61,916 nt of DNA, taken from the NCBI GenBank assembly GCA_964518755.1, contig CAZFHH010000001.1, forward strand, positions 1 through 61,916. The letters are read 5' to 3'. Made by a program: the position numbers and the translations under genes. The DNA comes from an uncultured Candidatus Saccharibacteria bacterium. Lineage in GTDB: Bacteria > Patescibacteriota > Minisyncoccia > Phycocordibacterales > Phycocordibacteraceae. Within the stretch, counting starts at the first letter, position 1; every line of letters starts with the position of its first letter. Of the stretch, positions 394-56,369 are shown in pieces. The notes beneath the pieces were generated by a model that searched no databases, was not told the origin of the DNA, and saw only the letters and a program-made list of their open reading frames with translations.

Positions 394-564
394 TGGAATG
401 GGCTATTCTCGAAAGGGATAGCATTGTCGATCTGTGTACTTCGGTACGCAGGGGAGATAGCACTGTCCCTAAACTGTGCTCGGATGCCGGAGAGCGATAC
501 CGGTATCGTGAGGGGGATCATATGACCCTCCCACGATGAATAGGCGGAACGCAAGAGAACACAT

Positions 565-608
565 CGTAATAACCCCATAACTCATAAATGAGTTATGGGG
601 TTATTACG
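565..608 (+). terminator. Long perfect hairpin between the 16S 3' region and tRNA-Ile (terminator or processing stem)
   Basis: CGTAATAACCCCATAACTCAT / ATGAGTTATGGGGTTATTACG form 21-nt perfect inverted arms, followed by TT. Confidence 0.5.
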
Positions 609-716
609 TTACCTATATATTTAGGAATGCGTCTCGTGTTTGGCAAATAACTGGAAACTGGTGCCGATATCTGTTACTATCGCATTATACGCATTGTGTG
701 GGCGTGTGTAATAAAT

Positions 717-791
717 GCGAGTGTAGCTCAGATTGGTTAGAGCACTCCCCTGATAAGGGAGAGGTCCCAGGTTCGAGTCCTGGCACTCGCA
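717..791 (+). tRNA. tRNA-Ile (anticodon GAU), CCA not encoded
   Basis: Full cloverleaf: acceptor GCGAGTG/CACTCGC, D stem GCTC/GAGC, anticodon stem CTCCC/GGGAG with loop CTGATAA (GAT), T arm CCAGG-TTCGAGT-CCTGG, discriminator A. Confidence 0.93.
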
Positions 792-950
792 CAAAAACAA
801 GGAGTATGGTGCGGAGCATCATGGCGACTATGTTTTTATGGTGAGTACCGGGGTTCGAACCGAAGCCGCCGCGAAGCCCGACGAAACAAAGCCCCTACCC
901 GTCGCCTCCGGCGGGGCGGGGCAAGCGCTATTTCAGCACTATTCAAAACC

Positions 951-2732: not shown

Positions 2733-2739
2733 CGCGCCC

Positions 2740-2774
2740 CCCCGCCCAGCGCGCCTTCGGCGCGCTGGGCGGGG
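2740..2774 (+). terminator. GC-rich hairpin terminator after the ABC exporter
   Basis: CCCCGCCCAGCGCGCC / GGCGCGCTGGGCGGGG form 16-bp perfect arms, 8 nt after the stop codon. Confidence 0.6.
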
Positions 2775-2905
2775 CTACTAAAGCCCATCTCACAATAGCC
2801 AAATTATCGTAATATCGGCTGTTGTTATTGCCTTCTTGTGGTAGTATCATATTGATACGAGTGTGCAGTGTCGTTATTTCACCAAATTATTTTTATACAA
2901 AATAT

Positions 2906-4348: not shown

Positions 4349-4357
4349 TATAAAAAT

Positions 4358-4651
4358 ATGAATGATGACCAAAATAAAAAAGATGTGCAAAAAATAACCG
4401 ATGACCTAGATGCTCTTGTTGAAGAGGCAAAGCAATTTGCTACAGGTATGGATGAAGATAATAAGCGCACGAATGAAACGTTTGATGAGATAGAGGCGGA
4501 CGTGGACAAGTCGGTGCGGGAAGTAGATGAAATCACTGCTGACCTTGACAGCGCCGAGAAGGAGGCGGGTGAGGAAATTGATAAGCTACTCATCAACCGG
4601 GCCGAGGAGGTTGCCACTTTGGAGAAGGAGGACAAGAATGAGGGCGTATAA
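4358..4651 (+). CDS. Hypothetical small acidic coiled-coil protein
   Basis: 97 aa, D/E-rich. It starts 9 nt after the preceding stop, so co-transcription is likely. Confidence 0.5.
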   Translation: MNDDQNKKDVQKITDDLDALVEEAKQFATGMDEDNKRTNETFDEIEADVDKSVREVDEITADLDSAEKEAGEEIDKLLINRAEEVATLEKEDKNEGV

Positions 4652-4750
4652 AATACCTGCCGATTTTATACCAATGGTAATTACATCGTTATCCACATCA
4701 CCCACTTTTTATTTCCACATAATGTGTAGAGCCTGTTATACTAAAATTAT

Positions 4751-5269
4751 ATGAGAGACACTCTTATATTAATCGGTATAACCATTGTCGGACTTACCGT
4801 CGCCGGAGTATTTTTGTTGTTTGGGCTCAATCAGAAGCATGCGGTTGCCCCAACCACCACGGCACAGTCCGAGGTTTCTATGCAGTTGCCGGCAAGGGTG
4901 CTTGCCAGCGGCACAGTCGCCCCCATTGATTCTCGCGTTAATTACCTCATACAAAATAAGAGTAAGCTACATCAGCTGTGGGAGCTCATTTACGGTACAC
5001 CAATGCCGGCAGTTCCATCCGTTGATTTTTCAAAATATGATGTCGCGGCTGTATTTGCCGGATTACAACCGACAACCGGATACAGCATTTCAATATTTGG
5101 CATAAAAACCACTCCCAAAAAAGAAGTGGCGGTTATAACAATCACGCGTCCGGGTCCCGCTTGTGCGGTTACAAAAAAGCGAACCAGCCCCTATGCTATT
5201 GTGTTAATCCCGAACTCACCGTTGCCACTTACACATACCGACGTTATCAAAACAGATTTTTGTAAATAG
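4751..5269 (+). CDS. Membrane-anchored hypothetical protein (possible PrcB_C-like beta domain)
   Basis: 172 aa. N-terminal TM helix LILIGITIVGLTVAGVFLLFGL. The C-terminal segment ...GLQPTTGYSISIFGI... is reminiscent of PrcB C-terminal domains. The family call is tentative. Confidence 0.45.
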   Translation: MRDTLILIGITIVGLTVAGVFLLFGLNQKHAVAPTTTAQSEVSMQLPARVLASGTVAPIDSRVNYLIQNKSKLHQLWELIYGTPMPAVPSVDFSKYDVAAVFAGLQPTTGYSISIFGIKTTPKKEVAVITITRPGPACAVTKKRTSPYAIVLIPNSPLPLTHTDVIKTDFCK

Positions 5270-5317
5270 TGCTATTGTCGCAGTATTTTGGTACTCTTGC
5301 GTGCATTGGTGTAGGAT

Positions 5318-6649
5318 ATGTGTATGGAGTTAACGAAGCATTCTTTTGGTGGTATGCGCATTACAGTCATGGGGCTTGGGTTGCTTGGGCGTGGTGTTGG
5401 CGATGTGCATTTTTTAGCACGCACGGGTGCGGAACTTATTGTTACTGATTTGAAATCACAAGCAGAGCTTGAAGAATCACTTACACAGCTAATAGATTTT
5501 CCTAAGATACAATTTGTACTCGGTGAACACCGTCTTGAAGATTTTCGTAATCGCGACATGGTATTGAAGGCCGCCGGCGTGCCTCTTGATTCACCGTATA
5601 TAGAAGAGGCTAGAAAAGAGGGAATACCGGTGCGCATGAGCGCGGATCTGTTTGCACAGATAGCGCGTGTACCGGTAATAGGTATCACCGGTACACGCGG
5701 AAAATCAACTGTCACTTATATGGTGCACTCTATTTTAGAGCGCGCCGGAAAACCGGTTGTGCTTGGTGGCAATGTTCGCGGTGTTTCCACCCTCTCCCTT
5801 CTTGACGAGGTGACTCCTACACACACGGCGATACTTGAGCTTGATTCATGGCAGTGTCAGGGATTCGGCGAAGCACATATGAGCCCTCATATTGCAGTTT
5901 TTACAACTTTCTTTCCCGACCATCTTGGATATTACAAAAATAATCTTGATAGATATCTTGCTGACAAAGCGCAGATCTTTCTTAATCAAACGAAAGAGGA
6001 TATTTTAATTCTTGGGCAACAGGCTGCGGATATCGTGCAGGAAAAATATGGCAATCATATTATGGCAAAAGTGGTGGTTGCGGAAGAAGACATTTCCAGT
6101 GATTGGCAATTACTCATTCCCGGGAAACACAACAGATACGATGCGTCGTTGGCGCGCGCTACCGCGCGCGCACTCAGCATTGATGACGACATCATTCGTC
6201 ACGCGCTTGAGAATTTCTCCGGAGTTCCGGGCCGTCTTGAGTTTATTGGAGAAAAAAGAGGAATACGATTTTATAATGACACCACAGCGACAACTCCCGA
6301 GGCAACCATCGCCGCACTTACCGCACTTGATAGTGGAAAGAAAAATATCATTCTCATTATGGGTGGAGCTGACAAGGGACTTTCAATGGGCGTGCTCCTT
6401 GCGGAAATGGAAAAACGAGTAAAACATATTATATTGCTTTCGGGAACCGGCACAGACACTATACGTAATAAACTTTCCACAGCTCAAGCGTACACAAGCC
6501 TATCCGATGCAATGAATGACGCACTTGCGCATGCCACAGCCAATGACATCATATTATTTTCTCCCGCATTTGCATCTTTTGGTATGTTCAAGAATGAGTT
6601 TGACAGAGGTGACCAATTTGTAAAATTAGCACAAGGGAAACTCGCATGA
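5318..6649 (+). CDS. murD: UDP-N-acetylmuramoylalanine--D-glutamate ligase
   Basis: 443 aa. N-terminal Rossmann MGLGLLGRG, ATP loop GITGTRGKST, C-terminal SPAFASFGMFKNEFDRG typical of MurD. Confidence 0.9.
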   Translation: MCMELTKHSFGGMRITVMGLGLLGRGVGDVHFLARTGAELIVTDLKSQAELEESLTQLIDFPKIQFVLGEHRLEDFRNRDMVLKAAGVPLDSPYIEEARKEGIPVRMSADLFAQIARVPVIGITGTRGKSTVTYMVHSILERAGKPVVLGGNVRGVSTLSLLDEVTPTHTAILELDSWQCQGFGEAHMSPHIAVFTTFFPDHLGYYKNNLDRYLADKAQIFLNQTKEDILILGQQAADIVQEKYGNHIMAKVVVAEEDISSDWQLLIPGKHNRYDASLARATARALSIDDDIIRHALENFSGVPGRLEFIGEKRGIRFYNDTTATTPEATIAALTALDSGKKNIILIMGGADKGLSMGVLLAEMEKRVKHIILLSGTGTDTIRNKLSTAQAYTSLSDAMNDALAHATANDIILFSPAFASFGMFKNEFDRGDQFVKLAQGKLA

Positions 6650-7407
6650 TTGGAGTTTTTGATTCCGGTTCTGGAGGACTTTCTGTGTTGCATGCCATTC
6701 GCGAGCTTCTTCCGTCTGCAGATGTCATATATTTTGGTGATATAAAGAATGCTCCGTATGGTGAAAAATCACCGGAAGAACTCTCTGCTCTTACTGCATA
6801 CGCCATAAGCTTTTTACAATTACATGGTGTAAAAAACATTGTATCCGCGTGCAACAGCGTGTCAGCATCACTTGCGATGTCTCTTTTAAGAGTATCTGAT
6901 TTTCCCAGTGACAAAATCATCGAAATGGTTGAGCCAACAGTGAACAGTTTTAAGGATAGTGATGAGCGCATTCTTCTGTGCGCAACTCCGGCGACCGTTT
7001 CCTCCGGAATTTATCAAAGCGGTTTTCGTATGATTGGAAAAGAACTTTCCACAATTGCAATTCCTGAACTTGCAGGAGCAATAGAGTTTGGTGCTTCTGA
7101 AAAAGAGATTGAGCAAATTATTATTCACACATTCATGGGTGTTCCGACAGAGGCATTTGACACGCTCGTGCTTGGATGTACGCACTATCCACTTGTAACC
7201 AATATCTTTGCAAGAGTGCTTGGAAACTCGGTGAGTATTGTTAATCCGTCCGGGTCGGTAGCTTCGCGCGTGAGTGAGCAATTTTTGCCGGCGGAAAACG
7301 AGAGGGGCATGATACGCTTCTTTATCACAAAAGAATCCGCCCAATTTCGTGCCAGGGTTGCCACGTTATTTCCAGAAAGCGCAAACGCAATTGAAGTGTT
7401 AGAGTAG
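6646..7407 (+). CDS. murI: Glutamate racemase
   Basis: 253 aa. Motifs IGVFDSGSGGLSVL, SACNSVSA and LGCTHYPL. The start overlaps the murD stop (ATGA). Confidence 0.9.
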   Translation: MIGVFDSGSGGLSVLHAIRELLPSADVIYFGDIKNAPYGEKSPEELSALTAYAISFLQLHGVKNIVSACNSVSASLAMSLLRVSDFPSDKIIEMVEPTVNSFKDSDERILLCATPATVSSGIYQSGFRMIGKELSTIAIPELAGAIEFGASEKEIEQIIIHTFMGVPTEAFDTLVLGCTHYPLVTNIFARVLGNSVSIVNPSGSVASRVSEQFLPAENERGMIRFFITKESAQFRARVATLFPESANAIEVLE

Positions 7408-7411
7408 ATGA

Positions 7412-8716
7412 ATGGAATTGAAAAATATTAAAAGGGCTCATTTTGTTGGAATTGGAGGCATCGGCATGTCGGCCCTGGCACAATTTTTTGTGCATGAGGG
7501 TGTTGATGTGTCCGGTTCAGACATGGCAGTATCTCCGGTGACGGAGCTTCTTGAATCTAATGGTGTAAAAGTTGTAATTGGGCATCGTGTTGAAAATATC
7601 CCTGAGGGAGCAGACGTGCTTGTCTACAGCGATGCCATTTCCAAAGACAACGTGGAGAGAGTGGAGGCGACCCGGCGCAATATTCCGCAATATTCATATT
7701 TTCAAATGTTGGGGGAAATATCGGTGGGGAAGCGCACTGTTGCGGTTGCCGGAACGCATGGAAAGACAACCACAACGGCGATGCTTGGGAAAATCTTGAG
7801 CGATGCGGGTGTATCTCCAACGGTTATTGTCGGTTCAATCACGCGTGATTTCAATTCCAACTATCTTTTCGGCTCTTCTGATTTGTTTGTGGTGGAGGCG
7901 TGTGAATATAAAGACCATCTGCTTGAACTTTCGCCGGAAATTCTTGTCATAACCAATCTTGAGTGGGATCATACGGATTATTTTCAATCACTTCCCGCGC
8001 TTCAAGAAACATTTCGTAAGGCTATTGCAAGGGTGCCCAAAAATGGAGCCATTATTACTAACCCGTCCGACAAAAATATTGCCCCATTGCTTGTGAGTGC
8101 TGTGCCGCGCGTTATTGATTACACGGAAGAAAACGTACCGGTGCTTACGTTTCCGGGGGAGTTTAATATGATGAACGCCCGCGCGGCGCAAAGCGCCGCG
8201 CGGGCCGTACTTCCAGATATTTCTCAAAAAACGATAAACACATCGTTGACTTCATTTAAGGGAACGTGGCGCAGATTTGAATATAAAGGAAAGACAGAAA
8301 ACGGAGTGGATGTATATGATGATTACGCGCACCATCCAACGGAGGTGCGCGCAACGCTTGGAGCGTTGCGCGCCAAAACCCAAGGACAAGGAAAATTATT
8401 CGTCGTTTTCCAAGCGCACCTTTTCAGTCGCACACGTGACTTGCTTGATGATTTCGCCCACGCTTTTGTCGATGCAGACGATATTATAATTGCTCCAATC
8501 TATGGAGCTCGCGAAAAGGATGACGGCACTGTTTCAAACAAAATACTCTCACAGCGTATTGCAAAAACCGGCACGCCGGCACGCCCCATTGATTCGTTTG
8601 AAGAAATCAAAACCTATTTGAAAACAAACGCTCGCTCGGGCGACACAATCATAACCATGGGCGCCGGCGATATCTACAAACTCACCGAAAAGGGGTCAGA
8701 CCCCTTTGTTTTATAA
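7412..8716 (+). CDS. murC: UDP-N-acetylmuramate--L-alanine ligase; the last ~9 codons and the stop lie in a REP element
   Basis: 434 aa. Motifs HFVGIGGIGMSALA, GTHGKTTTT and DYAHHPTE. The C-terminus ...EKGSDPFVL* is encoded by AAAAGGGGTCAGACCCCTTTG. Confidence 0.9.
   Translation: MELKNIKRAHFVGIGGIGMSALAQFFVHEGVDVSGSDMAVSPVTELLESNGVKVVIGHRVENIPEGADVLVYSDAISKDNVERVEATRRNIPQYSYFQMLGEISVGKRTVAVAGTHGKTTTTAMLGKILSDAGVSPTVIVGSITRDFNSNYLFGSSDLFVVEACEYKDHLLELSPEILVITNLEWDHTDYFQSLPALQETFRKAIARVPKNGAIITNPSDKNIAPLLVSAVPRVIDYTEENVPVLTFPGEFNMMNARAAQSAARAVLPDISQKTINTSLTSFKGTWRRFEYKGKTENGVDVYDDYAHHPTEVRATLGALRAKTQGQGKLFVVFQAHLFSRTRDLLDDFAHAFVDADDIIIAPIYGAREKDDGTVSNKILSQRIAKTGTPARPIDSFEEIKTYLKTNARSGDTIITMGAGDIYKLTEKGSDPFVL
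8688..8707. repeat. REP unit (AAAAGGGGTCAGACCCCTTT), left flank of the RAYT gene
   Basis: Palindrome GGGGTCAGACCCC with A/T flanks. The same unit recurs at 9435, 14110, 15131-15251 and 61814-61916. Confidence 0.85.
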
Positions 8717-8737: not shown

Positions 8738-9409
8738 ATGCCACGATCATTGCGCATAGATAAAGGGGGAGAAATATATCACTGCCTTAACAGGGCGGTT
8801 GGACGGCAAACTATCTTTAAGGATGGGGATGGCTATCGGCTCTTTGAATCTGTGCTGCAAGAGACCGTTGATATTACTGGTATGCGCATACTCGCGTATA
8901 GTCTTATGCCAAACCATTTCCATCTGGTGTTGTTTCCGGAAAAAGATGGAGATTTGTCAGCTTTTATGAAGCGCATCACTGCCACCCATACGCAACGTTA
9001 TCGTGTAATAACGGAAACTGTGGGCGAGGGTCCATTGTATCAGGGAAGGTATAAATCTTTCATGATTCAAGATGATAATCACTTGTTAACTGCTCTTAGA
9101 TATGTTGAACGAAATCCACTAACCGCGCAACTTGTAAAAAACATACTTGAGTGGAGGTATGGAAGCGTGTACAGGAGATACAAAGGTACAGATAGAGAAA
9201 AGAAGATTCTTTCTGCTTGGGTGTGCGATGAACCGGAAGATTATCTTCAATTCCTTGCACATCCTATCACAGAGAAGGAGTATGAAAAGATTACACAATC
9301 CGAAATAAAAGGAGTACCGTTTGGTGATGATGAATATGTATCCACAACGGTAAAGAAATATAATCTTAATTCAACGCTTCGCGCAAAAGGGAGGCCAAAG
9401 AAAGAATAA
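8738..9409 (+). CDS. REP-associated tyrosine transposase (RAYT; IS200/IS605-like Y1 HUH transposase)
   Basis: 223 aa. HUH motif NHFHLVL. Downstream QGRYKSF...LRYVERNP gives the catalytic-Tyr helix context. The gene is bracketed by two REP units in opposite orientation (central TCAGA vs TCTGA). Confidence 0.8.
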   Translation: MPRSLRIDKGGEIYHCLNRAVGRQTIFKDGDGYRLFESVLQETVDITGMRILAYSLMPNHFHLVLFPEKDGDLSAFMKRITATHTQRYRVITETVGEGPLYQGRYKSFMIQDDNHLLTALRYVERNPLTAQLVKNILEWRYGSVYRRYKGTDREKKILSAWVCDEPEDYLQFLAHPITEKEYEKITQSEIKGVPFGDDEYVSTTVKKYNLNSTLRAKGRPKKE

Positions 9410-9434: not shown

Positions 9435-9454
9435 AAAGGGGTCTGACCCCTTTT
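9435..9454. repeat. REP unit (AAAGGGGTCTGACCCCTTTT), right flank of the RAYT gene
   Basis: Same palindrome as 8688-8707 with the central base inverted. Confidence 0.85.
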
Positions 9455-10207: not shown

Positions 10208-10552
10208 ATGTCATCTGAAAGTACTCTCATTTTATTTGGTTTACTCGTTGTAATAACGCCATATAGCGGTGTGCCGACATTTTGGTATACGTACATACTC
10301 CCGATACTTGGTATCGTTATAATAGGTATCGGTTTTTTGTTCCGTTCACGCCGTGTTTCTTCTCAAAGCAACACCACACAAACAACACAGCAAACACCTT
10401 CCTCTGCTTCTGCAAATGACTCGGCGGAGTTTCAAGAACATCTCAACAAGCGTGATGAGGAGTCATCCGTATCGGCATCTTGCTCTGCGGAATCGTCTGA
10501 TGCGCAACAGCCAGCATCATCCTCACGCAAAGACCCGTCACCGATTTCATAG
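10208..10552 (+). CDS. Small membrane protein (two TM helices, S/T/Q-rich tail)
   Basis: 114 aa. Hydrophobic segments LILFGLLVVITPY and ILPILGIVIIGIGFLF. It lies directly upstream of the ATPase gene. Confidence 0.5.
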   Translation: MSSESTLILFGLLVVITPYSGVPTFWYTYILPILGIVIIGIGFLFRSRRVSSQSNTTQTTQQTPSSASANDSAEFQEHLNKRDEESSVSASCSAESSDAQQPASSSRKDPSPIS

Positions 10553-10620
10553 CATATAAAACCAATTGCATTTGCGTGAATTATTCCACTCACCTATTAT
10601 GCGATATGCGGGTATACTGA

Positions 10621-10629
10621 TGCTATAGT
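10621..10629 (+). promoter_or_regulatory. Extended -10 element TGCTATAGT, 7 nt upstream of the ATPase ATG
   Basis: TGnTATAGT. ATG at 10636. A second TATACT lies at 10612-10617. Confidence 0.4.
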
Positions 10630-10635
10630 TATTAT

Positions 10636-12543
10636 ATGAACAATCCGGACAAAGTAACTTATTTTGCAGCGACAAATGCCCGCGGAGTTTCGGTGCCGTT
10701 TGGCATCAAACAGGAAGACCGCTCCAAGCACATGTATGTCATCGGGAAGACAGGCATGGGGAAGTCAACCATGCTTGAGAATATGGCAATCCAAGATATC
10801 CGCAACGGTGAAGGGCTGGCATTTATTGACCCGCATGGGGCTTCGGCGGAAAGGATTCTTGACTACATTCCCCCGGAGAGAGTAAACGATGTTGTGTATT
10901 TTGCGCCGTTTGATCTTGACCAGCCGATAGCATTTAACATTATGGAAGATATCGGCTACGACAAGCGACATCTTGTTGTCTCGGGACTTATGTCCACTTT
11001 CAAAAAGGTGTGGGTTGATGCGTGGAGTGCCCGCATGGAATACATCTTAAGCAACACGTTGCTTGCACTTCTTGAATATCCCGGCGCCACATTGCTTGAT
11101 GTAAATCGCATGTATACGAACAAAGAGTATCGCAAGCAGGTAATTGACAACGTGAAAGACCCACTCGTGAAAGATTTTTGGACAAAGGAATTTACAAACT
11201 ATACAGACCGCTACACCCAAGAAGCGACACCTGCAATACAAAATAAAATCGGGCAGTTTACCAATAATCCACTCATTAGAAATATCATCGGTCAACAGAC
11301 ATCTTCGTTTAATATTCGCGAAATGATGGACAAGCAAAAGATTCTAATCGTTAATCTTTCAAAAGGGCTTGTGGGAGATACAAACATGCTTTTGCTCGGT
11401 TCAATGCTCACCACGCATATTTTCCTTGCGGCAATGAGCAGAGCGGACAGCAGGATTTCAGTTGGTAAGGATGTGTCTCCATTTTTCTTTTACGTTGATG
11501 AATTTCAGAATTTTGCGAATGAATCTTTTTCTGAGATTCTTTCCGAGGCGCGAAAATATAAATTGGATTTGATTATCGCACATCAATATGTTGAGCAGAT
11601 GCAAGAGGAGGTGCGCGCAGCGGTGTTTGGGAACGTTGGCACCACGATTGCCTTTCGTGTCGGTCCGTTTGATGCGGAGGTGTTAGAGACGATATTTATG
11701 CCTGAGTTTACAAAAGAGGATTTGGTAAATTTAGGATTTGCGCATATTTATTTATCACTGATGATTGACGGCGTTGGCTCGCGTCCGTTTTCGGCGATAA
11801 CCATTCCGCCAATTGAGCCACCGCCACGCATTTATACACAGGAAGTTATACAGGCCTCGCGTACGCAATTTGGACATCCGCGACAGGAAGTGGAAGATGC
11901 CATTATAGCCATTTTATCCGAAGGGTCTCATTCTTCCGAGCAATCACGTGTATCGCGCCCGGTACGCAATGGAAGGGAAAATAGACCAGGCGCGCGTGAA
12001 GCGCGCCCAGCATACGATAAGGGTGAAGCAAAGGCAACTCGCGCAACGTCTGCACCCGCGCGCGCGCCGTTTGCACAAGAAAAGCATGATATGATGCCAC
12101 GCGCGATGTCAGAGCATGGTGGCGGGGAGAGTAGAGGCGCCTTGCGAGCAAAAAAAGACGCTTCCGGCGCATCACTGCGTGATGTCATCGCTTCCGTAAC
12201 AAATGTATCTCATGAAGATGAGCAAAAAAAGAAAAAACAAGATCAAAGCAAATTGAAGAGGGCACTTTCCGATGTGCTTGGGCGTGCGGAAGACGGTGAA
12301 CATCCCGGCGCGGGCGGAGCCCACGCCGGGGCGGATACATTTGGGCGTGCGGAAGACGGTGAACATCCCGGCGCGGGCTCCGCCCGCGCCGGGGCGGGTT
12401 TTCCAGCCCATGTCGCCACCGACGCCGACGCCGAAGGCGGCGGGGGCGGGGCAAAGAAAGAGCAACAAAAAAATGAGCCCGTACCAAAGCCATTTGAGGT
12501 ATCAGAGCGGAAACTGAAAGATGTTCTCAATGGAGATTCGTAG
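10636..12543 (+). CDS. VirD4/TraD-like (type IV secretion coupling-protein-like) P-loop ATPase, soluble, with a disordered repeat-containing C-terminal tail
   Basis: 635 aa. Walker A VIGKTGMGKST followed by FIDPHG, Walker B FFFYVDEFQNF, then ARKYKLDLIIAHQY...FGNVGTTIAFRV. No N-terminal TM helix. The last ~200 aa are low-complexity (R/A/G/E-rich). Clear paralog of 53589..56369. Confidence 0.7.
   Translation: MNNPDKVTYFAATNARGVSVPFGIKQEDRSKHMYVIGKTGMGKSTMLENMAIQDIRNGEGLAFIDPHGASAERILDYIPPERVNDVVYFAPFDLDQPIAFNIMEDIGYDKRHLVVSGLMSTFKKVWVDAWSARMEYILSNTLLALLEYPGATLLDVNRMYTNKEYRKQVIDNVKDPLVKDFWTKEFTNYTDRYTQEATPAIQNKIGQFTNNPLIRNIIGQQTSSFNIREMMDKQKILIVNLSKGLVGDTNMLLLGSMLTTHIFLAAMSRADSRISVGKDVSPFFFYVDEFQNFANESFSEILSEARKYKLDLIIAHQYVEQMQEEVRAAVFGNVGTTIAFRVGPFDAEVLETIFMPEFTKEDLVNLGFAHIYLSLMIDGVGSRPFSAITIPPIEPPPRIYTQEVIQASRTQFGHPRQEVEDAIIAILSEGSHSSEQSRVSRPVRNGRENRPGAREARPAYDKGEAKATRATSAPARAPFAQEKHDMMPRAMSEHGGGESRGALRAKKDASGASLRDVIASVTNVSHEDEQKKKKQDQSKLKRALSDVLGRAEDGEHPGAGGAHAGADTFGRAEDGEHPGAGSARAGAGFPAHVATDADAEGGGGGAKKEQQKNEPVPKPFEVSERKLKDVLNGDS
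12278..12403 (+). repeat. Two tandem copies of a 63-nt unit inside the ATPase C-terminal tail
   Basis: TTGGGCGTGCGGAAGACGGTGAACATCCCGGCGCGGGC occurs at 12278 and again at 12341. It encodes GRAEDGEHPGAG twice. Confidence 0.85.
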
Positions 12544-14113
12544 ATATTTAATTATTGTATTTGTGTTGGTGCTCGCTCCTTCGTTTGTGCATGCGACAGG
12601 CACGGTGCGCATCAATGAAATAGCATGGATGGGAACAAAGACGAGCGCAAATGCCGAATGGATAGAACTTTTTAATATCGGAGATACGAAAATCCCGCTC
12701 AACGGGTGGACATTGAAAGCAAAAGATGGTTCACCGAACATCCACTTTTCCTCAAAAGACGCCATAAGCCCTCACGGGTATTTTCTTTTGGAACGCACAC
12801 GCAATGGAGCGGTGTCGGGAGTTACCGCAGACAAAATATACACAGGAAGTTTAAAAAACTCCGGCGAGGCATTGGTGTTGACCAACAATGCATCTACAAC
12901 CATAGATACGGTGATAGGCGGGAAAAACTGGTGTGCAATCGGCGGCAATAATTCAACGAAACAAACCGCCCAGCGCACGGCATCCGGCTGGATAACAGCA
13001 ACCGGAACTCCACGGGCAATAAATGTCGCTATCGGGGTGATGCCATCGTGCGCGACAGTGCAAAACCCCGGCGCCGGCTCCGCCGGCGCCGGGGTTGGTA
13101 CCACCACCGCTACCAATACGGCAACTACCACAGTAACTGCCGCTACCACCACAGTAATCCAAACTTCAGCCACATCAAATTCGGGGCACGATGGACCACC
13201 GGAGTTTGAGCCTGTGCCCGCGGTATTCATTTCCATCGGTAAGGACATGGATATAGTTGCCGGAGCCGATGTCCGTTTTTCAGCGGAGGTAACCGATAAG
13301 TCGGGGAAACAATATTCATCTGCAGTTGTCTATTGGGCTTTCGGAGACGGTTCAAAAGCAACCGGCACAAGTGTTTTTAAAAACTATCGTGCGCCCGGCA
13401 CATACGCGGTGGTTGCAAATGCTGTGCAAGGGCTTGGCAGCGGGGAAGATGATTTAACGGTAACGGTTCGCAATGTACATGTATCCATACCAAGCGTTTC
13501 TGCTCGCGGAATTACCGTGCAAAATAATACGCCATATCGTTTGGATATGTCATTGTGGCGATTGCGTGCTGGCACCACTACTTTTGCGCTTCCTTTACAC
13601 ACGGTCATCTTGCCAAATACAGCAGTACTTTTTCCTAAGGACATCACAAAACTCTCTGTGACCAACAACACGGTACTTCTGTATCCAAATGGTAAAGAGG
13701 TGGCGCGGTATGCATTCGGAAGCAGTGCCAAGCGTGTAGCGCTTGGCACTGCGAAGAAACTTTCTCCGGTGTCTGTTCGTTATAGTACTGTACAGGGAGG
13801 TGAGAATGGGGATGAAAATACCCAACGCGCGATGCAACAGCATATTATTAACGCACATAATACACCATTATCGTATGATGCTGAAACGTCAATAGCCCCC
13901 GCGTCGGCGATAGACATCGCCGACGCGGGGGCACCCGTTGCCGAAGCGTTTTCGGGCAGGGGCGTCACCTCCGTGGCGCCCCTGCCCGAACCCTCCGCAA
14001 CATCCGCAATATCGTCACCAACCTCTTTCACTCACAGGTTTCTTTCTGTACCATGGACCCTCCCGCTGTTGCTCATCCTCATCCTCTCTATAGCCGGTTT
14101 CATTCTGCTGTAG
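12521..14113 (+). CDS. Secreted, C-terminally anchored surface protein with lamin-tail domain (LTD) and PKD domain
   Basis: 530 aa. Signal-peptide-like N-terminus. LTD signature VRINEIAWMG...EWIELFN...GWTL, a T/A-rich linker, PKD-like ...VYWAFGDGSKATGTSVFKNYRAPGTYAV, and a C-terminal TM helix LPLLLILILSIAGFILL. The start overlaps the ATPase gene end. Confidence 0.7.
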   Translation: MFSMEIRRYLIIVFVLVLAPSFVHATGTVRINEIAWMGTKTSANAEWIELFNIGDTKIPLNGWTLKAKDGSPNIHFSSKDAISPHGYFLLERTRNGAVSGVTADKIYTGSLKNSGEALVLTNNASTTIDTVIGGKNWCAIGGNNSTKQTAQRTASGWITATGTPRAINVAIGVMPSCATVQNPGAGSAGAGVGTTTATNTATTTVTAATTTVIQTSATSNSGHDGPPEFEPVPAVFISIGKDMDIVAGADVRFSAEVTDKSGKQYSSAVVYWAFGDGSKATGTSVFKNYRAPGTYAVVANAVQGLGSGEDDLTVTVRNVHVSIPSVSARGITVQNNTPYRLDMSLWRLRAGTTTFALPLHTVILPNTAVLFPKDITKLSVTNNTVLLYPNGKEVARYAFGSSAKRVALGTAKKLSPVSVRYSTVQGGENGDENTQRAMQQHIINAHNTPLSYDAETSIAPASAIDIADAGAPVAEAFSGRGVTSVAPLPEPSATSAISSPTSFTHRFLSVPWTLPLLLILILSIAGFILL

Positions 14114-14170
14114 AAAAGGGGTCAGACCCCTTTTCTACACAGACCCCTTTTCTACAGTGACCCCTTTTCC
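14110..14170. repeat. REP cluster (one full palindrome plus two half sites)
   Basis: GTAGAAAAGGGGTCAGACCCCTTTTCTAC, then ACAGACCCCTTTTCTAC and AGTGACCCCTTTTCC. The TAG stop of the LTD gene is part of the palindrome arm. Confidence 0.85.
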
Positions 14171-14207
14171 GAACGCCACAGACCGTGCGTGTGGTATATT
14201 TAATAGT

Positions 14208-15128
14208 ATGGAACGTATACCGATTAGGGGTGATGAATCTCCCGATCATTCTAAATTTCATAGAGAGAAAGAGATGGAGGATATATACCAACGAGAAATT
14301 ACTGAGGGAGCAAATATAATTAAAAAGGAAGTGAGTCTAAAATCCTCGGAAGGAGCGATAGTTGATTATCTAAAAGATACTGCCACTGTAGAACTGCAAG
14401 GATTGCGTGATTTAGATCCGGATAAGGGAACAAACTTAAACGTGCTCATATCTTATGTCGCTGAAAGTTGCGCGGAAATAATGTATGGTTTTGGAAGGGG
14501 GAAACCACCCATTCTCACAAGAATATCAAAGGACCTGCTTTTAGCCAAAGATGAAATTTTTGATGAAATGCAACGTTTGTATTGGATAAAAACTCCACTG
14601 GACACCACTAATTTTAAAGAGACCATCGCTGAGGCGCGTCTTGAGGGGCTTCGTCTTGTGCGTAGCGGTGATGATGGGGCTCTTGATATGGCGAAATATT
14701 TATTTGCGCAAGAACTTGTGCGCATGTCTTTATTTAATGGCAGGGAAGTGTTGCCACAGCTTAAGTTGTTGTTTTCTGTTGAAGAAATAGAAGAAATAAT
14801 AGATAGTGTGGATGAAGAAATGGAAGAAACAGAAAGAGATGACGGGCTTGCGGACAATGGTGAGGATGATATTGCGGGGGTTGTTGCAAATGATGACACG
14901 TGCGACAAGAGTGAATTGCTAAGGCATACTGGAGTACATAAAAGGATGGCGGATCGCATTATGTCAGTCAAAGAAGAAAAGAATAGGAAGCGCAGTGCGC
15001 ACGCACGTGAAGCATCGATAAAGTCTGTAGATAATGAATGGGAATATATGATAGCTCTAATAAAGAAGTATTCGGATATACGTGATTTTGTTGATGACGT
15101 CTTGGATACTGAAAATATGCCGATTTAG
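14208..15128 (+). CDS. Hypothetical acidic protein (no recognisable family)
   Basis: 306 aa from ATG 14208. The upstream GTG start at 14157 in the ORF track lies inside REP sequence. Bracketed by REP clusters. Confidence 0.5.
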   Translation: MERIPIRGDESPDHSKFHREKEMEDIYQREITEGANIIKKEVSLKSSEGAIVDYLKDTATVELQGLRDLDPDKGTNLNVLISYVAESCAEIMYGFGRGKPPILTRISKDLLLAKDEIFDEMQRLYWIKTPLDTTNFKETIAEARLEGLRLVRSGDDGALDMAKYLFAQELVRMSLFNGREVLPQLKLLFSVEEIEEIIDSVDEEMEETERDDGLADNGEDDIAGVVANDDTCDKSELLRHTGVHKRMADRIMSVKEEKNRKRSAHAREASIKSVDNEWEYMIALIKKYSDIRDFVDDVLDTENMPI

Positions 15129-15130: not shown

Positions 15131-15251
15131 AAAGGGGTCTGTGAATAAAGGGGTCAGACCCCTTTATTCACAGACCCCTTTATTCAACAGAGCAGGTCTG
15201 ACCCCTTTTCTCCACTCTTAATAGAAGGGGAAAAGGGGTCTGACCCCTTTT
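15131..15251. repeat. REP cluster, including a 51-nt perfect palindrome
   Basis: 15131-15181 has 25-nt perfect arms centred on A15156 (AAAGGGGTCTGTGAATAAAGGGGTC-A-GACCCCTTTATTCACAGACCCCTTT). There is a half site at ~15194-15212 and a full REP AAAAGGGGTCTGACCCCTTTT at 15231-15251. Confidence 0.85.
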
Positions 15252-15329: not shown

Positions 15330-15584
15330 ATGGCAACAATTCAAAAAGCAATCAAAGTTGGGAGCTCGGTGGCGGCCGTTCTACCGAAAGCGCTTCTTAA
15401 GGAAACCGGAATTTCAGCCGGTATGAATATCTCTGTGGAGTATTCCGCCGGCGGAGTCCTTATTCGTCCCGTACGAAAGACAATGAAGCGCAGGGTTGCA
15501 AATGCAGACGAGCGTGTTGCGGAAACCGCTCTTTCACTCATCAATCGTTACAAAACAGTGCTTGAGCGCCTTTCCGATGCATAA
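15330..15584 (+). CDS. AbrB/SpoVT-family antitoxin (partner of Doc)
   Basis: 84 aa. N-terminal swapped-hairpin-type sequence IKVGSSVAAVLPKALLKETGISAGMNISVEY. It overlaps the toxin start by 8 nt. Confidence 0.75.
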   Translation: MATIQKAIKVGSSVAAVLPKALLKETGISAGMNISVEYSAGGVLIRPVRKTMKRRVANADERVAETALSLINRYKTVLERLSDA

Positions 15585-15978
15585 CATTGTATATCTTACG
15601 GCAGAGCAACTTGAGCTCATACATGCAGGCGTATTAGCAAAAAGTGGCGGCCTTTTCGGTACGCGCGAGCGCAATGTGCTTGTAGGTCTTGAATCATCTC
15701 CACGGCAAAGTGTGTTTGGGAAAGAACTTTATCCGACGCTATTTTTAAAAGCATCTGTGTACGCACACAGCATTATTGCATATCATCCGTTTCTTGACGG
15801 TAATAAACGTACAGGAATAATAAGTGCGTTTACATTTTTGGAATTAAATGGCTATCGTATTGTTGCGACTGACGATGAAGTGTTTACCTATGTGCTCATG
15901 ATTGCAACGGAAAATTCTGAAATTGAGCAAATTGCACAGTGGTTTAAAAAGCGAGCCGTAAAACCCAGAAAGTGCTAA
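15577..15978 (+). CDS. doc: Doc (death-on-curing) / Fic-family toxin
   Basis: 133 aa from ATG 15577. Fic/Doc motif HPFLDGNKRTG. Confidence 0.8.
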   Translation: MHNIVYLTAEQLELIHAGVLAKSGGLFGTRERNVLVGLESSPRQSVFGKELYPTLFLKASVYAHSIIAYHPFLDGNKRTGIISAFTFLELNGYRIVATDDEVFTYVLMIATENSEIEQIAQWFKKRAVKPRKC

Positions 15979-24627: not shown

Positions 24628-24647
24628 AGCTGTCTGTATTATTTATA

Positions 24648-26809: not shown

Positions 26810-26827
26810 ATATTTTTTCTTAAAAAA

Positions 26828-27844: not shown

Positions 27845-27846
27845 AA

Positions 27847-31321: not shown

Positions 31322-31325
31322 GTTT

Positions 31326-33698: not shown

Positions 33699-33726
33699 TT
33701 TGTTATTGATTTTAATGAGGCATGAT

Positions 33727-38824: not shown

Positions 38825-38828
38825 ATAA

Positions 38829-53503: not shown

Positions 53504-53588
53504 GCTCCATAACCCAACCGCCTTTTATCAACATTTTACGATGAGCTTCTTTTTGTGCGGTGGTGTGTATGCGGTATACTAATTGGTA

Positions 53589-56369
53589 ATGGAAGGAGTA
53601 CCACTGCGAACACCGGAAGAAGAGCTTGCGTATTTGCGTGAGCAGGTGCAACAAAAAGAAAGAGAGCTCGCTCAAAACGCGGTTGAGAACGGTGCCTCGG
53701 AAGAGGCACCGCAAGCACGCTTTGAGCGTGCGGCTGATGCTACGCTTGTCGCGCATCGCGCGGCGCCACCCGAAAATACCCTTGAAGAAAATTATCGCAT
53801 AACTGAAGACGAGGCGAGTAACAAGGCGCTCGGGCTTGATCCTGACAGTAACGATGACACGATGCTTGAGTTGCGTAGTATCATGGATGAACGGGGCATA
53901 AAAAATGCTTTTACAGTGTTGGGAAAACTCAATAATCCGCACATCACTGATGATTTCCATAGATTTTTGGTGCGCTATATTGCAGCCGGTTTTTTGCCAA
54001 AGGGACTTTCTGAAAAGGCGCCGGAATTCAAAGCGTTGCATATGGTGCTTTATGAGGTGCAGTTACCCGAATTCAAAAGTACGCAAGAAAATTCCCGAGA
54101 GAAACCACTCAAAGAAATGGTGTCTGTTATGGAGCAGTTTTATTCAGGACTACTTTCGGTTTCAGCGACAACGCCACAGGAGCCACCATACATAGTACTT
54201 GAAATGGCGGTACCTCTTGAAAGTGCCTTGCTTTCTTTTTATGTTGCCGTACCAAACGGGAAGCGGGATATGTTTGAAAAACAATTGCTTGCCATTTTTC
54301 CGTTGGCGCGTCTTTCGCTTCAGCCAAATGACTATAATATCTTTGTTGAAAATGGTACGACACTCATTTCAGAGGCACGCCTTACCACCGTTCCAATGCT
54401 GCCACTCAGAGATTACACAGAGTTTGACTATGACCCGCTTAATACTGTTCTGAGCGCATTTGCAAAAATTCAAGACAATGAAGAGGGTGCGGCATTGCAA
54501 ATAGTATTTTCACCGCAAGGTGAGCGATATGTGGCACACTATCGCAAGGTGTTGCAAGCTCTGCGCAAGGGCATGAAGCGCGGGAAAGCATTTAACATAC
54601 CAAGCACCACACTTGGTGAGGTGGGCAAAGAGTTCAAAGATTTTTTCTTTACTGGCAGTAAATCAAAGGAAGATGAGAGCAGGATTCGCGAAGAAGAAAA
54701 ACGACAAGCGGAGATAAATAAAAATGATATAGAGCAGCTTGAAAAGAAAATATCCACACCAATTGCCGGCGTATCTATGCGTCTTCTGGTTTCTTCTCCT
54801 GATGCCGGTCGCGCAGGGCAGGTCATTTCAGATATTGAATCGGCATTCAATCAATTTGATAATACATTGGGGAATCACCTGGAGTTTGCTCGTGTAAAAG
54901 AAAAGAAAATACATTCTGTTGCTGATGCATATTCGTTTCGTTTGCCCGGTGACCACCTTATGCCACTTTCACTTCGTGAGCTTTCAACTATGTATCATTT
55001 CCCGTCCACCGGCATCACTTCTTCACCGCATCTTAAGCAATCAAGATTTGCAACGGCGCCGGCTCCTGTTGATTTGCCAAAATCAGGAATACAAATTGGC
55101 GCCAACGTTGTACGTGGGCAAGAAATGCCAATATTTATTGATGACGAAGACCGTTTGCGACACCTTTATGTTATCGGTCAAACCGGTGCCGGTAAAACCG
55201 GTTTCCTAAAAACACTTATTGAACAAGATATGCGCGCCGGTCGTGGAGTATGTTTTATAGACCCGCACGGCAACGATATTTTGGACGTGCTCGCGGCGGT
55301 ACCTCCCGAACGGTATGACGATGTCATTTATTTTGATCCGGCATATCTTGACAGACCATTCGGGCTCAACATGCTTGAGTATGACCCGCAACGTCCGGAA
55401 CAAAAAACATTTATTGTGAATGAATTGTTCATGATATTTCGTAGCTTATATGGTGATGTGCCTGAAAGTATGGGCCCGGCGTTTGAACAGTATTTCAGAA
55501 ACTCCACCATGCTTATTATGGAAGATCCGGAATCCGGTTCAACCATGCTTGATATTGGAAGGGTTCTTTCTGACGATGCGTTTCGCAATATGAAACTTTC
55601 TCACAGTCATAATCCGGTAGTCAATCAATTTTGGACGGGCATTGCGACAAAAGCCGGTGGGGAAGCATCTCTTGAAAATATTGTTCCCTATATCACCAGC
55701 AAACTTGATGATTTTACCTCCAATGATTTTATGCGCCCGATTATTGGGCAACAAAATTCCTCTTTTGATTTCAGAGATATTATAGATAATAAAAAGATTT
55801 TATTGGTAAACCTTTCCAAGGGGCGATTGGGAGAACGCAACGCCAACCTGATTGGTCTCATCTTGGTGGGAAAGATATTTATGGCGGCGCTTTCTCGCGC
55901 CGATTCGCCCGGAGTTGATTTACCCCCGTTTTATTTCTACATTGATGAATTCCAAAATATCACTACAGATTCAATCCCGTCTATTCTTTCGGAAGCGCGC
56001 AAATATAAACTTTCACTCAATATCGCGCATCAATTCCTTGACCAGGTAAATGAAAAGACACGCGATGCTGTGTTTGGCAACGTTGGTAATATGGTCGTGT
56101 TCCGTGTTGGAGAAAAAGACGGTGAATTTTTCGCAAAACAATTTGCCCCGACTTTTTCAGCTCCTGATTTCATCAATATAGAAAATCGCAATGCGTATGC
56201 AAAGATTTTGGCTCGTGGAGTTCCACAGAAACCGTTTAATATCCGCACACTTAATCTTTCAGAGCGCAATCTCGCGCAAGTGGACGATTTAAGAGAGCTT
56301 TCGTATCTGACATATGGGCGCGACCGTGCAACCATTGAGGAAGAAATAAGAATACGATATCTCTCGTGA
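53589..56369 (+). CDS. VirD4/TraD-like P-loop ATPase with a ~490-aa N-terminal extension (paralog of 10636..12543)
   Basis: 926 aa from ATG 53589. The C-terminal half aligns with the other ATPase: LYVIGQTGAGKTGF...FIDPHG, FYFYIDEFQNI, ARKYKLSLNIAHQF...FGNVGNMVVFRV. The N-terminal half has no recognisable family. TATACT at 53575-53580. Confidence 0.7.
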   Translation: MEGVPLRTPEEELAYLREQVQQKERELAQNAVENGASEEAPQARFERAADATLVAHRAAPPENTLEENYRITEDEASNKALGLDPDSNDDTMLELRSIMDERGIKNAFTVLGKLNNPHITDDFHRFLVRYIAAGFLPKGLSEKAPEFKALHMVLYEVQLPEFKSTQENSREKPLKEMVSVMEQFYSGLLSVSATTPQEPPYIVLEMAVPLESALLSFYVAVPNGKRDMFEKQLLAIFPLARLSLQPNDYNIFVENGTTLISEARLTTVPMLPLRDYTEFDYDPLNTVLSAFAKIQDNEEGAALQIVFSPQGERYVAHYRKVLQALRKGMKRGKAFNIPSTTLGEVGKEFKDFFFTGSKSKEDESRIREEEKRQAEINKNDIEQLEKKISTPIAGVSMRLLVSSPDAGRAGQVISDIESAFNQFDNTLGNHLEFARVKEKKIHSVADAYSFRLPGDHLMPLSLRELSTMYHFPSTGITSSPHLKQSRFATAPAPVDLPKSGIQIGANVVRGQEMPIFIDDEDRLRHLYVIGQTGAGKTGFLKTLIEQDMRAGRGVCFIDPHGNDILDVLAAVPPERYDDVIYFDPAYLDRPFGLNMLEYDPQRPEQKTFIVNELFMIFRSLYGDVPESMGPAFEQYFRNSTMLIMEDPESGSTMLDIGRVLSDDAFRNMKLSHSHNPVVNQFWTGIATKAGGEASLENIVPYITSKLDDFTSNDFMRPIIGQQNSSFDFRDIIDNKKILLVNLSKGRLGERNANLIGLILVGKIFMAALSRADSPGVDLPPFYFYIDEFQNITTDSIPSILSEARKYKLSLNIAHQFLDQVNEKTRDAVFGNVGNMVVFRVGEKDGEFFAKQFAPTFSAPDFINIENRNAYAKILARGVPQKPFNIRTLNLSERNLAQVDDLRELSYLTYGRDRATIEEEIRIRYLS

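Follow-up and report, generated by a model that had tools for sequence, protein, structure and literature searches.

A soluble coupling-protein-like ATPase and its head-swapping surface partner as a possible DNA receptor and motor of Patescibacteria

What does a motor of the coupling-protein type do in a chromosome where no secretion system is encoded around it? The question is raised by contig CAZFHH010000001.1 (assembly GCA_964518755.1) of an uncultured Candidatus Saccharibacteria bacterium. Its stretch of 61,916 nucleotides (nt), called the window below, carries a gene for an ATPase resembling the VirD4/TraD proteins of type IV secretion systems (T4SSs) as well as, overlapping its end, a gene for a secreted protein with a lamin-tail domain (LTD), here termed the partner. 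A preliminary description had joined these two genes and a small membrane-protein gene upstream into one module, and had proposed a dedicated device for the capture and translocation of DNA or another polymer. Three co-oriented open reading frames (ORFs) are indeed present, and the public record GCA_006243245.1 carries the same three gene calls:

10208..10552, forward strand: small hairpin protein with two transmembrane (TM) helices, 114 amino acids (aa) (ORF list)
10636-12543, forward strand: soluble TrwB/VirD4-fold ATPase, 635 aa (ORF list)
12521..14113, forward strand: partner, an LTD/PKD protein, 530 aa (ORF list)

ORF calling places the start of the partner gene within the ATPase gene, as in the preliminary description, and the overlap is 23 nt. 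The answer we favour, and hold tentatively, is that ATPase and partner are a cytoplasmic DNA motor and a surface DNA receptor, probably auxiliary to competence and not a conjugation system.

The ATPase consists of a folded core, a long tether and a short terminal peptide:

10636..11925, forward strand: catalytic core, aa 1-430 (Pfam, AlphaFold2 model, Foldseek)
10744..10770, forward strand: Walker A motif GKTGMGKST, aa 37-45 (translation)
10822-10839, forward strand: FIDPHG, aa 63-68 (translation)
10957-11289, forward strand: inserted all-alpha domain, about aa 108-218, within the nucleotide-binding domain
11482..11586, forward strand: Walker B region FFFYVDEFQNF (aa 283-293) and ARKYKL...AHQ (aa 305-317) (translation)
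11926..12489, forward strand: disordered tether rich in Pro, Lys, Glu, Ala and Ser, aa 431-618 (model confidence)
12490..12543, forward strand: conserved C-terminal peptide PFEVSERKLKDVLNGDS plus stop codon (homologue comparison, model)

The four motifs listed in the preliminary description are all found intact in the translation; YVDEFQNF is aa 286-293, and ARKYKL...AHQ is the arginine/glutamine sensor region of the type IV coupling protein (T4CP) type. The comparison covered 80 related genome loci, chosen as the closest relatives; residue conservation and tail statistics were taken from 78 ATPase homologues. Residues G37, K38, G40, G42, K43, S44, T45, D65 and G68 are invariant in these, as are D288, E289, F290, Q291, R306, K307, Y308 and Q317, while P66 and H67 are nearly so. 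Two Pfam T4CP domains score above their gathering cutoffs, TrwB_AAD_bind (3e-9; 36.6 bits against 20.5) and TraG-D_C (1e-6; 28.7 bits against 22); DUF87 is marginal (2e-5; 25 bits against a gathering score of 23.2). None of the NCBIfam equivalog cutoffs for T4CPs is reached, and the margins are wide (SXT_TraD 40.6 against 366 bits, conju_CD1115 34.3 against 250, conj_TOL_TraD 29.6 against 648).

Since a sequence search of the PDB barely detects TrwB (marginal matches only, E = 0.047), a fold search was needed. The AlphaFold2 model, built from 78 sequences, has block-mean predicted local distance difference test (pLDDT) values mostly >90 for aa 1-430, and its best Foldseek match in the PDB is the soluble domain of TrwB (E ~1e-12, target-normalised TM-score 0.60-0.65, ~420 columns), followed by Cag-beta (VirD4), HerA, DotL, the C-domain of DndH and VirB4. 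No hydrophobic segment reaches the threshold for a TM helix anywhere in the 635 aa, and the model opens directly with the beta-strands of the soluble domain. The fold search and the missing TM segment thus identify a T4CP-fold motor without a membrane domain, in agreement with the preliminary description; it presumably works as a hexamer.

Membership of the T4CP family holds at the level of fold and motifs only. With TrwB of R388, VirD4, TraD, Cag-beta and DotL the protein shares the nucleotide-binding domain with its inserted all-alpha domain, the motifs Walker A-DPxG, hhhhDE and R-K/S-x...Q, and the Pfam domains TrwB_AAD_bind and TraG-D_C. Unlike them, it has no N-terminal TM domain and no genetic link to a relaxase or a VirB4-type T4SS, either in the window or in about 12 Pfam-annotated neighbourhoods of relatives; it is also chromosomally encoded, nearly universal in a single phylum and strongly conserved there, and it is paired with a surface protein that resembles a DNA receptor. 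The HerA and FtsK-SpoIIIE translocases belong to the same ASCE superfamily, and the DUF87 match and the HerA structures among the Foldseek hits are further common ground. In contrast to those proteins, our ATPase has no N-terminal HAS-barrel in the model, no NurA, Sir2 or DUF4297 partner in the neighbourhoods, no FtsK gamma or TM domains and no match to FtsK_SpoIIIE (PF01580). Membership of a defence system was considered and dropped: PADLOC returned only a weak similarity to mad8/HerA-type ATPases, with fragmentary HerA matches.

Beyond the core, pLDDT falls to block means of ~40-60 over about aa 431-620, so the disordered tail of about 200 aa claimed in the preliminary description stands; that description had missed that the tail ends in a conserved peptide. 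Tails of the homologues have a median length of 165 aa (range 78-244 aa) and are rich in proline (12.5%), lysine (11%) and glutamate (10%); a semi-conserved helix, LKxALxxVL, lies within the tether at about aa 529-548. The terminal peptide, with the family consensus PFEVPEExL[RK]xI[LF]K[GE], closes the sequence of essentially every short-form homologue listed (the short form being the architecture seen here, with the core first and the tail after it), and its residues E621 and L627 hardly vary. In the model aa 624-631 form a helix (block pLDDT 71-79), and the peptide is predicted to be a short linear motif that binds a partner protein. The layout of nucleoside triphosphatase, tether and terminal peptide resembles the adaptor-binding tails of TraD and DotL, T4CPs in which the C-terminal extension likewise carries a terminal interaction peptide (TraD-TraM, DotL-IcmSW). 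The tail-coding region also contains a 63-nt tandem repeat at 12278-12397 (1.9 copies, 92% match), which duplicates the peptide GRAEDGEHPGAG... and has a raised G+C (GC) fraction (0.53 against about 0.45).

The partner is built as an exported stalk with a distal head:

starts at 12521, forward strand: signal peptide, aa 1-25 (VHA|T) (hydrophobic segment, prediction)
12590-12913, forward strand: LTD head, aa 24-131 (Pfam PF00932)
between LTD head and PKD, forward strand: Thr/Ala-rich linker (sequence)
13232-13468, forward strand: PKD domain, aa 238-316 (Pfam)
13469-13720, forward strand: putative degenerate LTD-like domain, aa 317-400 (sub-threshold LTD matches in orthologues)
between LTD-like domain and anchor, forward strand: low-complexity stalk (sequence)
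14054-14110, forward strand: C-terminal TM anchor, aa 512-530 (hydrophobic segment)

Pfam and the hydrophobic segments bear out the lamin-tail, PKD and anchor architecture of the preliminary description, the LTD with E = 2e-17 (64.2 bits against a cutoff of 34.3) and the PKD with E = 2e-8. What had been overlooked is the apparent second LTD-like domain, degenerate in sequence, which follows the PKD. From these features the protein is predicted to be exported and membrane-anchored, with its binding domain outside the cell. A helix-hairpin-helix (HhH) domain of the ComEA type (PF12836 / TIGR00426) was looked for with Pfam in this protein and is not there; LTD and PKD take its place.

It is the comparison with relatives that connects the partner with DNA. 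The gene downstream of the ATPase was classified in the 73 loci with sufficient downstream flank:

20/73 loci: core with LTD head
20/73 loci: core with ComEA-type HhH head
10/73 loci: core with FlgD-Ig-like or unknown head
4/73 loci: short HhH-plus-anchor protein, no core
1/73 loci: LTD-plus-anchor protein, no core
18/73 loci: other gene (mostly epimerase or glycosyltransferase) or none

The core, found at 50/73 loci, has a constant order of PKD, degenerate LTD-like domain and C-terminal TM anchor. Its HhH heads are bona fide ComEA domains: in L001, for example, TIGR00426 scores 71 bits against a cutoff of 53, and the match to the solved ComEA structure 8dfk has E = 2e-12. In a list of the loci sorted by the similarity of their ATPases, the three kinds of head (LTD, HhH and Ig-like) interleave among close relatives, and the cluster nearest to the window holds both LTD versions (L004, L006) and HhH versions (L001, L002); the heads have therefore been swapped repeatedly on one core. 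The earlier suggestion that the surface protein deals with DNA gains from this, as a ComEA-type HhH stands at the position of the LTD head in 20/73 loci, with four short HhH proteins besides. It does not gain from the LTD as such, since published work does not establish that LTDs bind DNA (PMC6085458).

Known systems offer parallels to both kinds of head. ComEA of Bacillus, Vibrio and Neisseria has the same HhH domain as the HhH-headed partner orthologues, which further resemble the Gram-positive ComEA proteins in carrying a membrane anchor and a DNA-binding domain outside the cell. The window's partner differs from ComEA in its LTD, in a C-terminal rather than N-terminal anchor, in the inserted PKD and LTD-like stalk, and in the position of its gene beside a T4CP-like ATPase and not in a comEA-comEC operon. 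A distal LTD on an exported, membrane-associated protein that handles extracellular DNA is known from ExeM of Shewanella, Hvo_1477 and the haloarchaeal ComA (PMC6085458, PMC5118699). Unlike the LTD nucleases and ComEC-like proteins, however, the partner has no nuclease or metallo-beta-lactamase domain, and the role of the LTD in those proteins is itself under debate.

Are the two genes more than neighbours? A partner-type gene directly follows the ATPase at 55/73 loci, and many partner starts lie within -50 to +25 nt of the ATPase stop, with frequent stop/start overlap. A profile of the PKD and LTD-like core, run against an index of 5.8 billion proteins, gave five matches and missed its own protein; because this search was uninformative, profile hidden Markov models (HMMs) of core, LTD head and HhH head were searched locally against all fetched loci (~2 Mb of Patescibacteria DNA). 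They find exactly one ORF per short-form locus, always the neighbour of the ATPase, and none in the control set of 79 loci of the same phylum that hold a second, longer form of the ATPase (862 kb). The pairing is thus conserved well beyond chance, and of the three genes joined at the outset it is the ATPase and the partner that form the conserved unit.

The pair also holds where its surroundings change. It is kept with DnaG-RpoD-PriA upstream in L086, at just 45% ATPase identity in L087 and, as overlapping genes, with SpoU-MscS and a degenerate third paralogue upstream in L170. Insertions have come between the two genes in L162 (a RAYT-like transposase, of a Y1 type similar to the one at 8738-9409 in the window) and in L083 (a glycosyltransferase), the pair being otherwise kept. 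The paralogue in L170 (5627-6961, 444 aa) is a third, divergent family member with a degenerate Walker A (IIGRPRTHKSE), lies directly upstream of the ATPase-LTD pair and, judged from its sequence, may be a catalytically dead subunit or regulator. In L169 a short-form ATPase gene stands at the end of a type IV pilus-like operon (389-8035), which has the order response regulator, PilB-like T2SSE, PilC-like T2SSF, four pilin-like proteins, ATPase, with a gap of 15 nt before the ATPase.

The flanks of the pair suggest another role, in envelope biogenesis: the ATPase would supply the energy to export or assemble a glycoprotein or polysaccharide of the cell surface, the PKD/LTD protein would be a structural stalk or an S-layer-associated glycoprotein, and flanking glycosyltransferases, epimerases, DUF4015 and Wzy_C proteins would be its partners. 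Mur ligases, DUF4015, GT4 glycosyltransferases, epimerases and Wzy_C do recur in the neighbourhoods, in the window and in relatives, and the Thr-rich linker of the partner might be O-glycosylated. Yet ATPases of the VirD4/HerA type are not known to power the export of polysaccharides or glycoproteins, glycan biology has no role for ComEA-type HhH heads, and the pair in L170 has no Mur or glycosyltransferase neighbours, while that in L086 has only a Wzy_C downstream. We consider this role very unlikely.

The small membrane protein fares differently from the pair. Its two hydrophobic segments (aa 7-45) are confirmed: adjacent TM helices span about aa 5-46 (nt 10220-10345), and the tail behind them is of low complexity and rich in Ser, Thr and Gln. 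The hairpin is the only conserved part (median identity 37%), and its loop motif LPFLGFP..WKN is conserved. BLAST finds homologues in 51/80 related loci, always directly after rsmI, within an order murC...rsmI-2TM-ATPase that is widespread among the 80. A DUF4015 gene stands between the hairpin gene and the ATPase in ~15/80 loci and in L082-L085 and L087, and in these five distant loci the hairpin gene overlaps the DUF4015 start. No hairpin gene lies upstream of the ATPase in L086, L169 and L170. Gene order across loci thus ties the hairpin gene to rsmI and DUF4015 and not demonstrably to the ATPase, and its place in the unit, asserted in the preliminary description, is doubtful. In many Paceibacteria it is translationally coupled to a gene for a membrane-anchored, glycoside-hydrolase-like DUF4015 protein; the lineage of the window retains the hairpin gene, and DUF4015 is absent from the 62 kb.

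These data bear on the possibility that the hairpin protein is the detached membrane domain of a split VirD4, which together with the ATPase would reconstitute a membrane-anchored T4CP. Classical T4CPs begin with two TM helices at the N-terminus (the crystallised form of TrwB was deltaN70), and in the window the hairpin gene lies 83 nt upstream of an ATPase that lacks them. However, the hairpin gene tracks rsmI, overlaps the start codon of DUF4015 when that gene intervenes, and is missing above the ATPase in the three loci just named. Because it follows rsmI and DUF4015 and not the ATPase, the split-VirD4 explanation was rejected as the principal account of the locus, and we hold it to be highly improbable.

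The reading that we favour, a surface DNA receptor with a cytoplasmic DNA motor, would make the pair a two-gene unit on the chromosomes of Paceibacteria-type Patescibacteria, with a task in DNA handling at the cell envelope. The partner would be exported by Sec, keep its C-terminal helix in the membrane and hold its head outward on a stalk of PKD, LTD-like and low-complexity segments. It is taken to be a receptor for extracellular DNA because its head is an LTD here and, in close relatives, a ComEA-type HhH domain that binds double-stranded DNA. The ATPase would act as a soluble, DNA-dependent motor like the hexameric coupling proteins TrwB and VirD4, docked by its tether of ~165-200 aa and its terminal peptide on a membrane partner encoded elsewhere, for which the ComEC/ComFC competence channel is the prime candidate. 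DNA would be captured outside and pulled or processed inside, the two proteins being analogues of ComEA and ComFA, with a putative physical link between them. ComFA, the DEAD-box motor of Gram-positive uptake, would be matched in role as a cytoplasmic ATPase that pulls incoming DNA, whereas its fold differs. The archaeal DNA-import ATPases CedB and CedD, of the HerA/VirB4 superfamily, are alike in proposed role and give weak matches in the P-loop region; this similarity extends over no more than ~60 residues near Walker A (24 and 19-21 bits, where the cutoffs are 600-700), and no Ced membrane components accompany our ATPase. A bolder version, in which the TM-less coupling-protein ATPase has replaced ComFA as the uptake motor, the tip-swapping receptor has replaced ComEA, and the peptide docks on ComEC/ComFC, seems to us somewhat unlikely.

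Published data on competence in these bacteria add to the case for the favoured reading. The conserved com core of the candidate phyla radiation is given as ComEC, DprA and ComFC (Wang et al., PMC10633639), and ComEA and ComFA have no occurrence (0 each) in the text of that paper; as reported, this core has neither a DNA receptor (ComEA) nor a motor (ComFA). In S. epibionticum an LTD protein is encoded in the order comEC-yebC-LTD-ruvC (PMC10633639 supplement). The type IV pilus operon of L169 and the published rarity of T4CP homologues near virB4 (148 of 5,713, PMC12102498) count on the same side.

Several points weigh against the favoured reading. The case for its function is contextual throughout, and known coupling proteins export DNA and do not import it. 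No recurrent candidate for a ComEC- or VirB6-like channel appears among the flanking ORFs (at least 450 aa and at least 6 TM helices, within 10 kb), and the translocation device of the preliminary description is thus unproven, no channel protein being encoded in the unit or in its 10-kb flanks. In this genome the partner's anchor lacks a cytoplasmic tail, so that direct contact between partner and ATPase is unlikely. For the type IV pilus setting there is the single case of L169; among the fetched loci no other has type IV pilus genes near the ATPase. For the role of bacterial LTDs, membrane targeting and nuclease support are rival proposals (PMC6085458). S. epibionticum can do without ComEC, but its LTD protein SEML1_0775 is essential (NE/ES/ES), and of its two longer-form ATPases SEML1_0142 is essential (ES/ES/ES) and SEML1_0293 is not (PMC10633639). 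Since ComEC can be lost and the LTD protein and one long form cannot, the roles of these families extend beyond ComEC-dependent transformation.

The adjacency itself is open to the same kind of objection. The partner is absent at 18/73 loci, one whole clade has epimerase or glycosyltransferase genes in its place, and the 80 loci were closest relatives by selection, which weakens the signal. Most of them share a long syntenic block, murD-murC-rsmI-2TM-(DUF4015)-ATPase-partner-glycosyltransferases, which extends across Paceibacteria, so that part of the adjacency is inherited synteny. One may then suppose that the genes are functionally independent: the ATPase would do a cytoplasmic job on chromosomal or plasmid DNA in the manner of HerA, FtsK or VirD4 (resolution, repair or anti-phage defence), and the downstream gene would encode a stand-alone adhesin or ComEA-like receptor. 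Besides the block and the missing partners, the weak PADLOC similarity to mad8 and HerA fits such a job, and tail-less relatives of the ATPase occur without such a partner in integrase, defence and restriction islands, on non-mobilizable plasmids and in Bacillus phages. The ATPase core is, moreover, more conserved than MurC/RsmI of the same loci, as a core cytoplasmic machine would be (median identity 76% against 60%, a comparison biased by the choice of loci by ATPase similarity). This also holds in L083-L085 (65-67% against 43-55%), whereas in the deliberately divergent L082 and L087 the ATPase is not more conserved than MurC/RsmI. On the other side, the pair survives at least three unrelated flanking contexts and two insertions, its stop and start overlap in many loci including the window, and the partner type is never found elsewhere in the 2 Mb. 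Functional independence is in our view somewhat unlikely.

The window holds a second member of the ATPase family, outside the unit:

53583..56369, forward strand: long-form paralogue, 928 aa (ORF, Pfam, NCBIfam, model)

Its longest ORF starts at 53583 (TTG), and 53589, the start in the preliminary description, is an in-frame ATG two codons downstream. Two architectures can be told apart, the short form, with an N-terminal core and then the tail, and the long form, with an N-terminal extension of 230-460 aa; the window has one of each, with cores 41% identical. When the N-terminal 505 aa of the long form were modelled, the model was confident over ~aa 150-490, and every one of the top 13 Foldseek hits in the PDB was the N-terminal domain of TrwK/VirB4, at E = 3.5e-7 to 2.5e-4 but with low TM-scores (~0.3). 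Matches to VirB4_CagE of NCBIfam (18 bits against 643) and to FtsK_SpoIIIE (16.4 bits, cutoff 24) stay under their cutoffs. The model predicts a hybrid of a VirB4-type N-terminal domain and a T4CP-like core, with no other T4SS gene encoded alongside. Because of this predicted VirB4-like N-terminal half, the long form is not a second copy of the three-gene module, where the preliminary description had seen a differently elaborated copy of the ATPase module at 53589-59070; nor does it have an LTD-type partner.

Residues 2-132 of the long form (53586-53978) match a small-ORF profile (E = 5e-11). This small module is a protein of 124-165 aa with no Pfam match, a separate gene in distant loci (L103-L145) that mostly abuts the ATPase start; it is fused in 12 ORFs and separate in 37 across the fetched loci, which by sequence makes the two a gene fusion/fission pair. 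SEML1_0141/0142 of S. epibionticum have this arrangement of small ORF and long form, and both are essential in transposon sequencing (PMC10633639). A conserved partner of the long form was sought and none was retained as a candidate: its neighbours in the window (FtsH, a 765-aa protein, DUF5663, FKBP, Tgt) are kept only in close relatives, at ATPase-core identities of ~75% or more, in distant loci all that recurs is the small ORF upstream and, in some, GtrA, and the long form never comes with an LTD, HhH or PKD partner in the 79 loci searched.

The family as a whole is large, with 21,343 representatives (50% identity clusters) at E <= 1e-3, at least 5,670 of them at E <= 1e-30, and at least 8,000 clusters at 90% identity. 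Among the 'enriched' protein families of the phylum it is one of the most widespread. Orphan T4CP homologues in Patescibacteria, about two per genome, have already been published by Quinonero-Coronel et al. 2025 (PMC12102498): 5,713 VirD4-type homologues occur in 2,918 of 3,035 genomes (~96%), against 2,417 genomes with VirB4, only 148 of the 5,713 lie near virB4, and exaptation, in the authors' words, 'cannot be ruled out'. Our ATPase belongs to that gene family. Not described there, and new here, are the division into short and long forms, the partner with its ComEA or LTD head, the peptide at the end of the tether and the VirB4-like N-terminal domain of the long form.

Tail-less relatives of 395-545 aa (L088, L171, L172) stand beside AAA_15/OLD-like ATPases, ResIII helicases, methyltransferases, SIR2 and integrases. 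Others, at <=38% identity, occur on mostly non-mobilizable plasmids of Bacillus, Streptomyces and Sulfitobacter (H1-H12) and in the large Bacillus phages G, CP-51 and Shanette (H13-H20). Soluble T4CP-like ATPases therefore make up a broader clade, with members among mobile elements and defence genes. As the plasmid and phage relatives are this distant, tail-less and in non-conjugative contexts, the ATPase does not group with a plasmid TraD of a full conjugation locus, a grouping that the preliminary description had thought would undo its proposal.

Could the ATPase instead be the coupling protein of a distant chromosomal T4SS? Patescibacteria have such a system (VirB4, VirB6, VirB8, pilins), typically near dnaA; the terminal peptide would then recruit substrates or dock on VirB4, the surface protein would be an accessory receptor or adhesin, and DNA might be taken up or released as by ComB of H. 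pylori or the gonococcal genetic island (GGI) of Neisseria. T4CP genes often lie away from virB4, and adaptor-binding tails are typical of TraD and DotL. The fold and the Pfam and CONJScan-type signatures are those of T4CPs (PMC12102498), the VirB4-like domain of the window paralogue links the family to T4SS ATPases, and the T4SS locus of Saccharibacteria has no recognisable coupling protein (PMC10633639). Against this stand the missing TM domain, with which nearly all T4CPs join their channel, the NCBIfam cutoffs missed so widely, the presence of homologues in ~500 more genomes than VirB4 with so few of them near virB4, and the non-essential SEML1_0293 in S. epibionticum, where the T4SS is essential. 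Gene content points the same way: neither the window, which was searched for VirB4, VirB6, relaxase and pilin genes as in the preliminary description, nor the annotated neighbourhoods of relatives hold a T4SS gene or relaxase. We regard this alternative as unlikely.

Judged by the closest loci, the window is Patescibacteria DNA of the Paceibacteria-Kaiserbacteria type. Its only ORFs of at least 500 aa encode an ABC transporter, a 508-aa protein, the two ATPases, the LTD protein, Wzy_C, SecA, FtsH and a 765-aa protein, the 508-aa and 765-aa proteins being without an assigned family. Other genes encode Mur ligases, RsmI, glycosyltransferases, a polysaccharide cluster, Wzy_C, MurB, SecA, Obg and GatB, and further ones tmRNA/SmpB, FtsH, FKBP and Tgt; all scanned neighbours are cell-wall, polysaccharide or housekeeping genes. 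A minus-strand block of polysaccharide genes at about 24600-38900 has a GC fraction of 0.30-0.39 against about 0.45 elsewhere, includes GT11, GT4, a Wzt-like ABC ATPase and a GDP-mannose dehydratase among the genes scanned, and is possibly a horizontally acquired glycan cluster.

A recurrent palindrome, AAGGGGTC[A/T]GACCCCTT, marks several sites around the unit, with seven copies in the window against 0 expected by chance:

14116..14132, no strand: perfect palindrome AAGGGGTCAGACCCCTT, directly after the partner stop codon
8690-8706, 9436-9452, 14116-14132, 15148-15164, 15233-15249, 61815-61831 and 61866-61882: all copies

The copy at 14116-14132, which resembles a repetitive extragenic palindromic (REP) element, is probably a transcription stop marking the 3' end of the unit. 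Two copies flank the gene of an IS200-like Y1 transposase (8738-9409), a layout reminiscent of REP elements with a REP-associated tyrosine transposase (RAYT). Two others bracket an ORF of 323 aa (14157-15128) that has no Pfam match and no homologue in the 80 related loci; being bracketed and genome-specific, it suggests an insertion. A toxin-antitoxin pair at 15330-15978 separates the unit from the glycosyltransferase genes: the gene of a MazE-like antitoxin overlaps that of a Fic/Doc-family toxin. Only 3/80 related loci have this pair.

Patescibacteria make up a large share of bacterial diversity, have no nucleotide synthesis and are naturally transformable. For them the findings turn an annotation, 'T4SS DNA-binding domain-containing protein' without a T4SS, into concrete hypotheses on how ultra-small symbionts acquire DNA. 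With the head swapping on the partner there is, for the first time, a comparative argument that an LTD in bacteria can substitute for a DNA-binding domain. If the unit serves the essential T4SS of Patescibacteria instead, the missing coupling protein of that system would have been identified. If the bolder version of our favoured reading is true, an export motor of the conjugation type would now serve import, and its gene would have become fixed as near-core across a whole phylum that does not make its own nucleotides.

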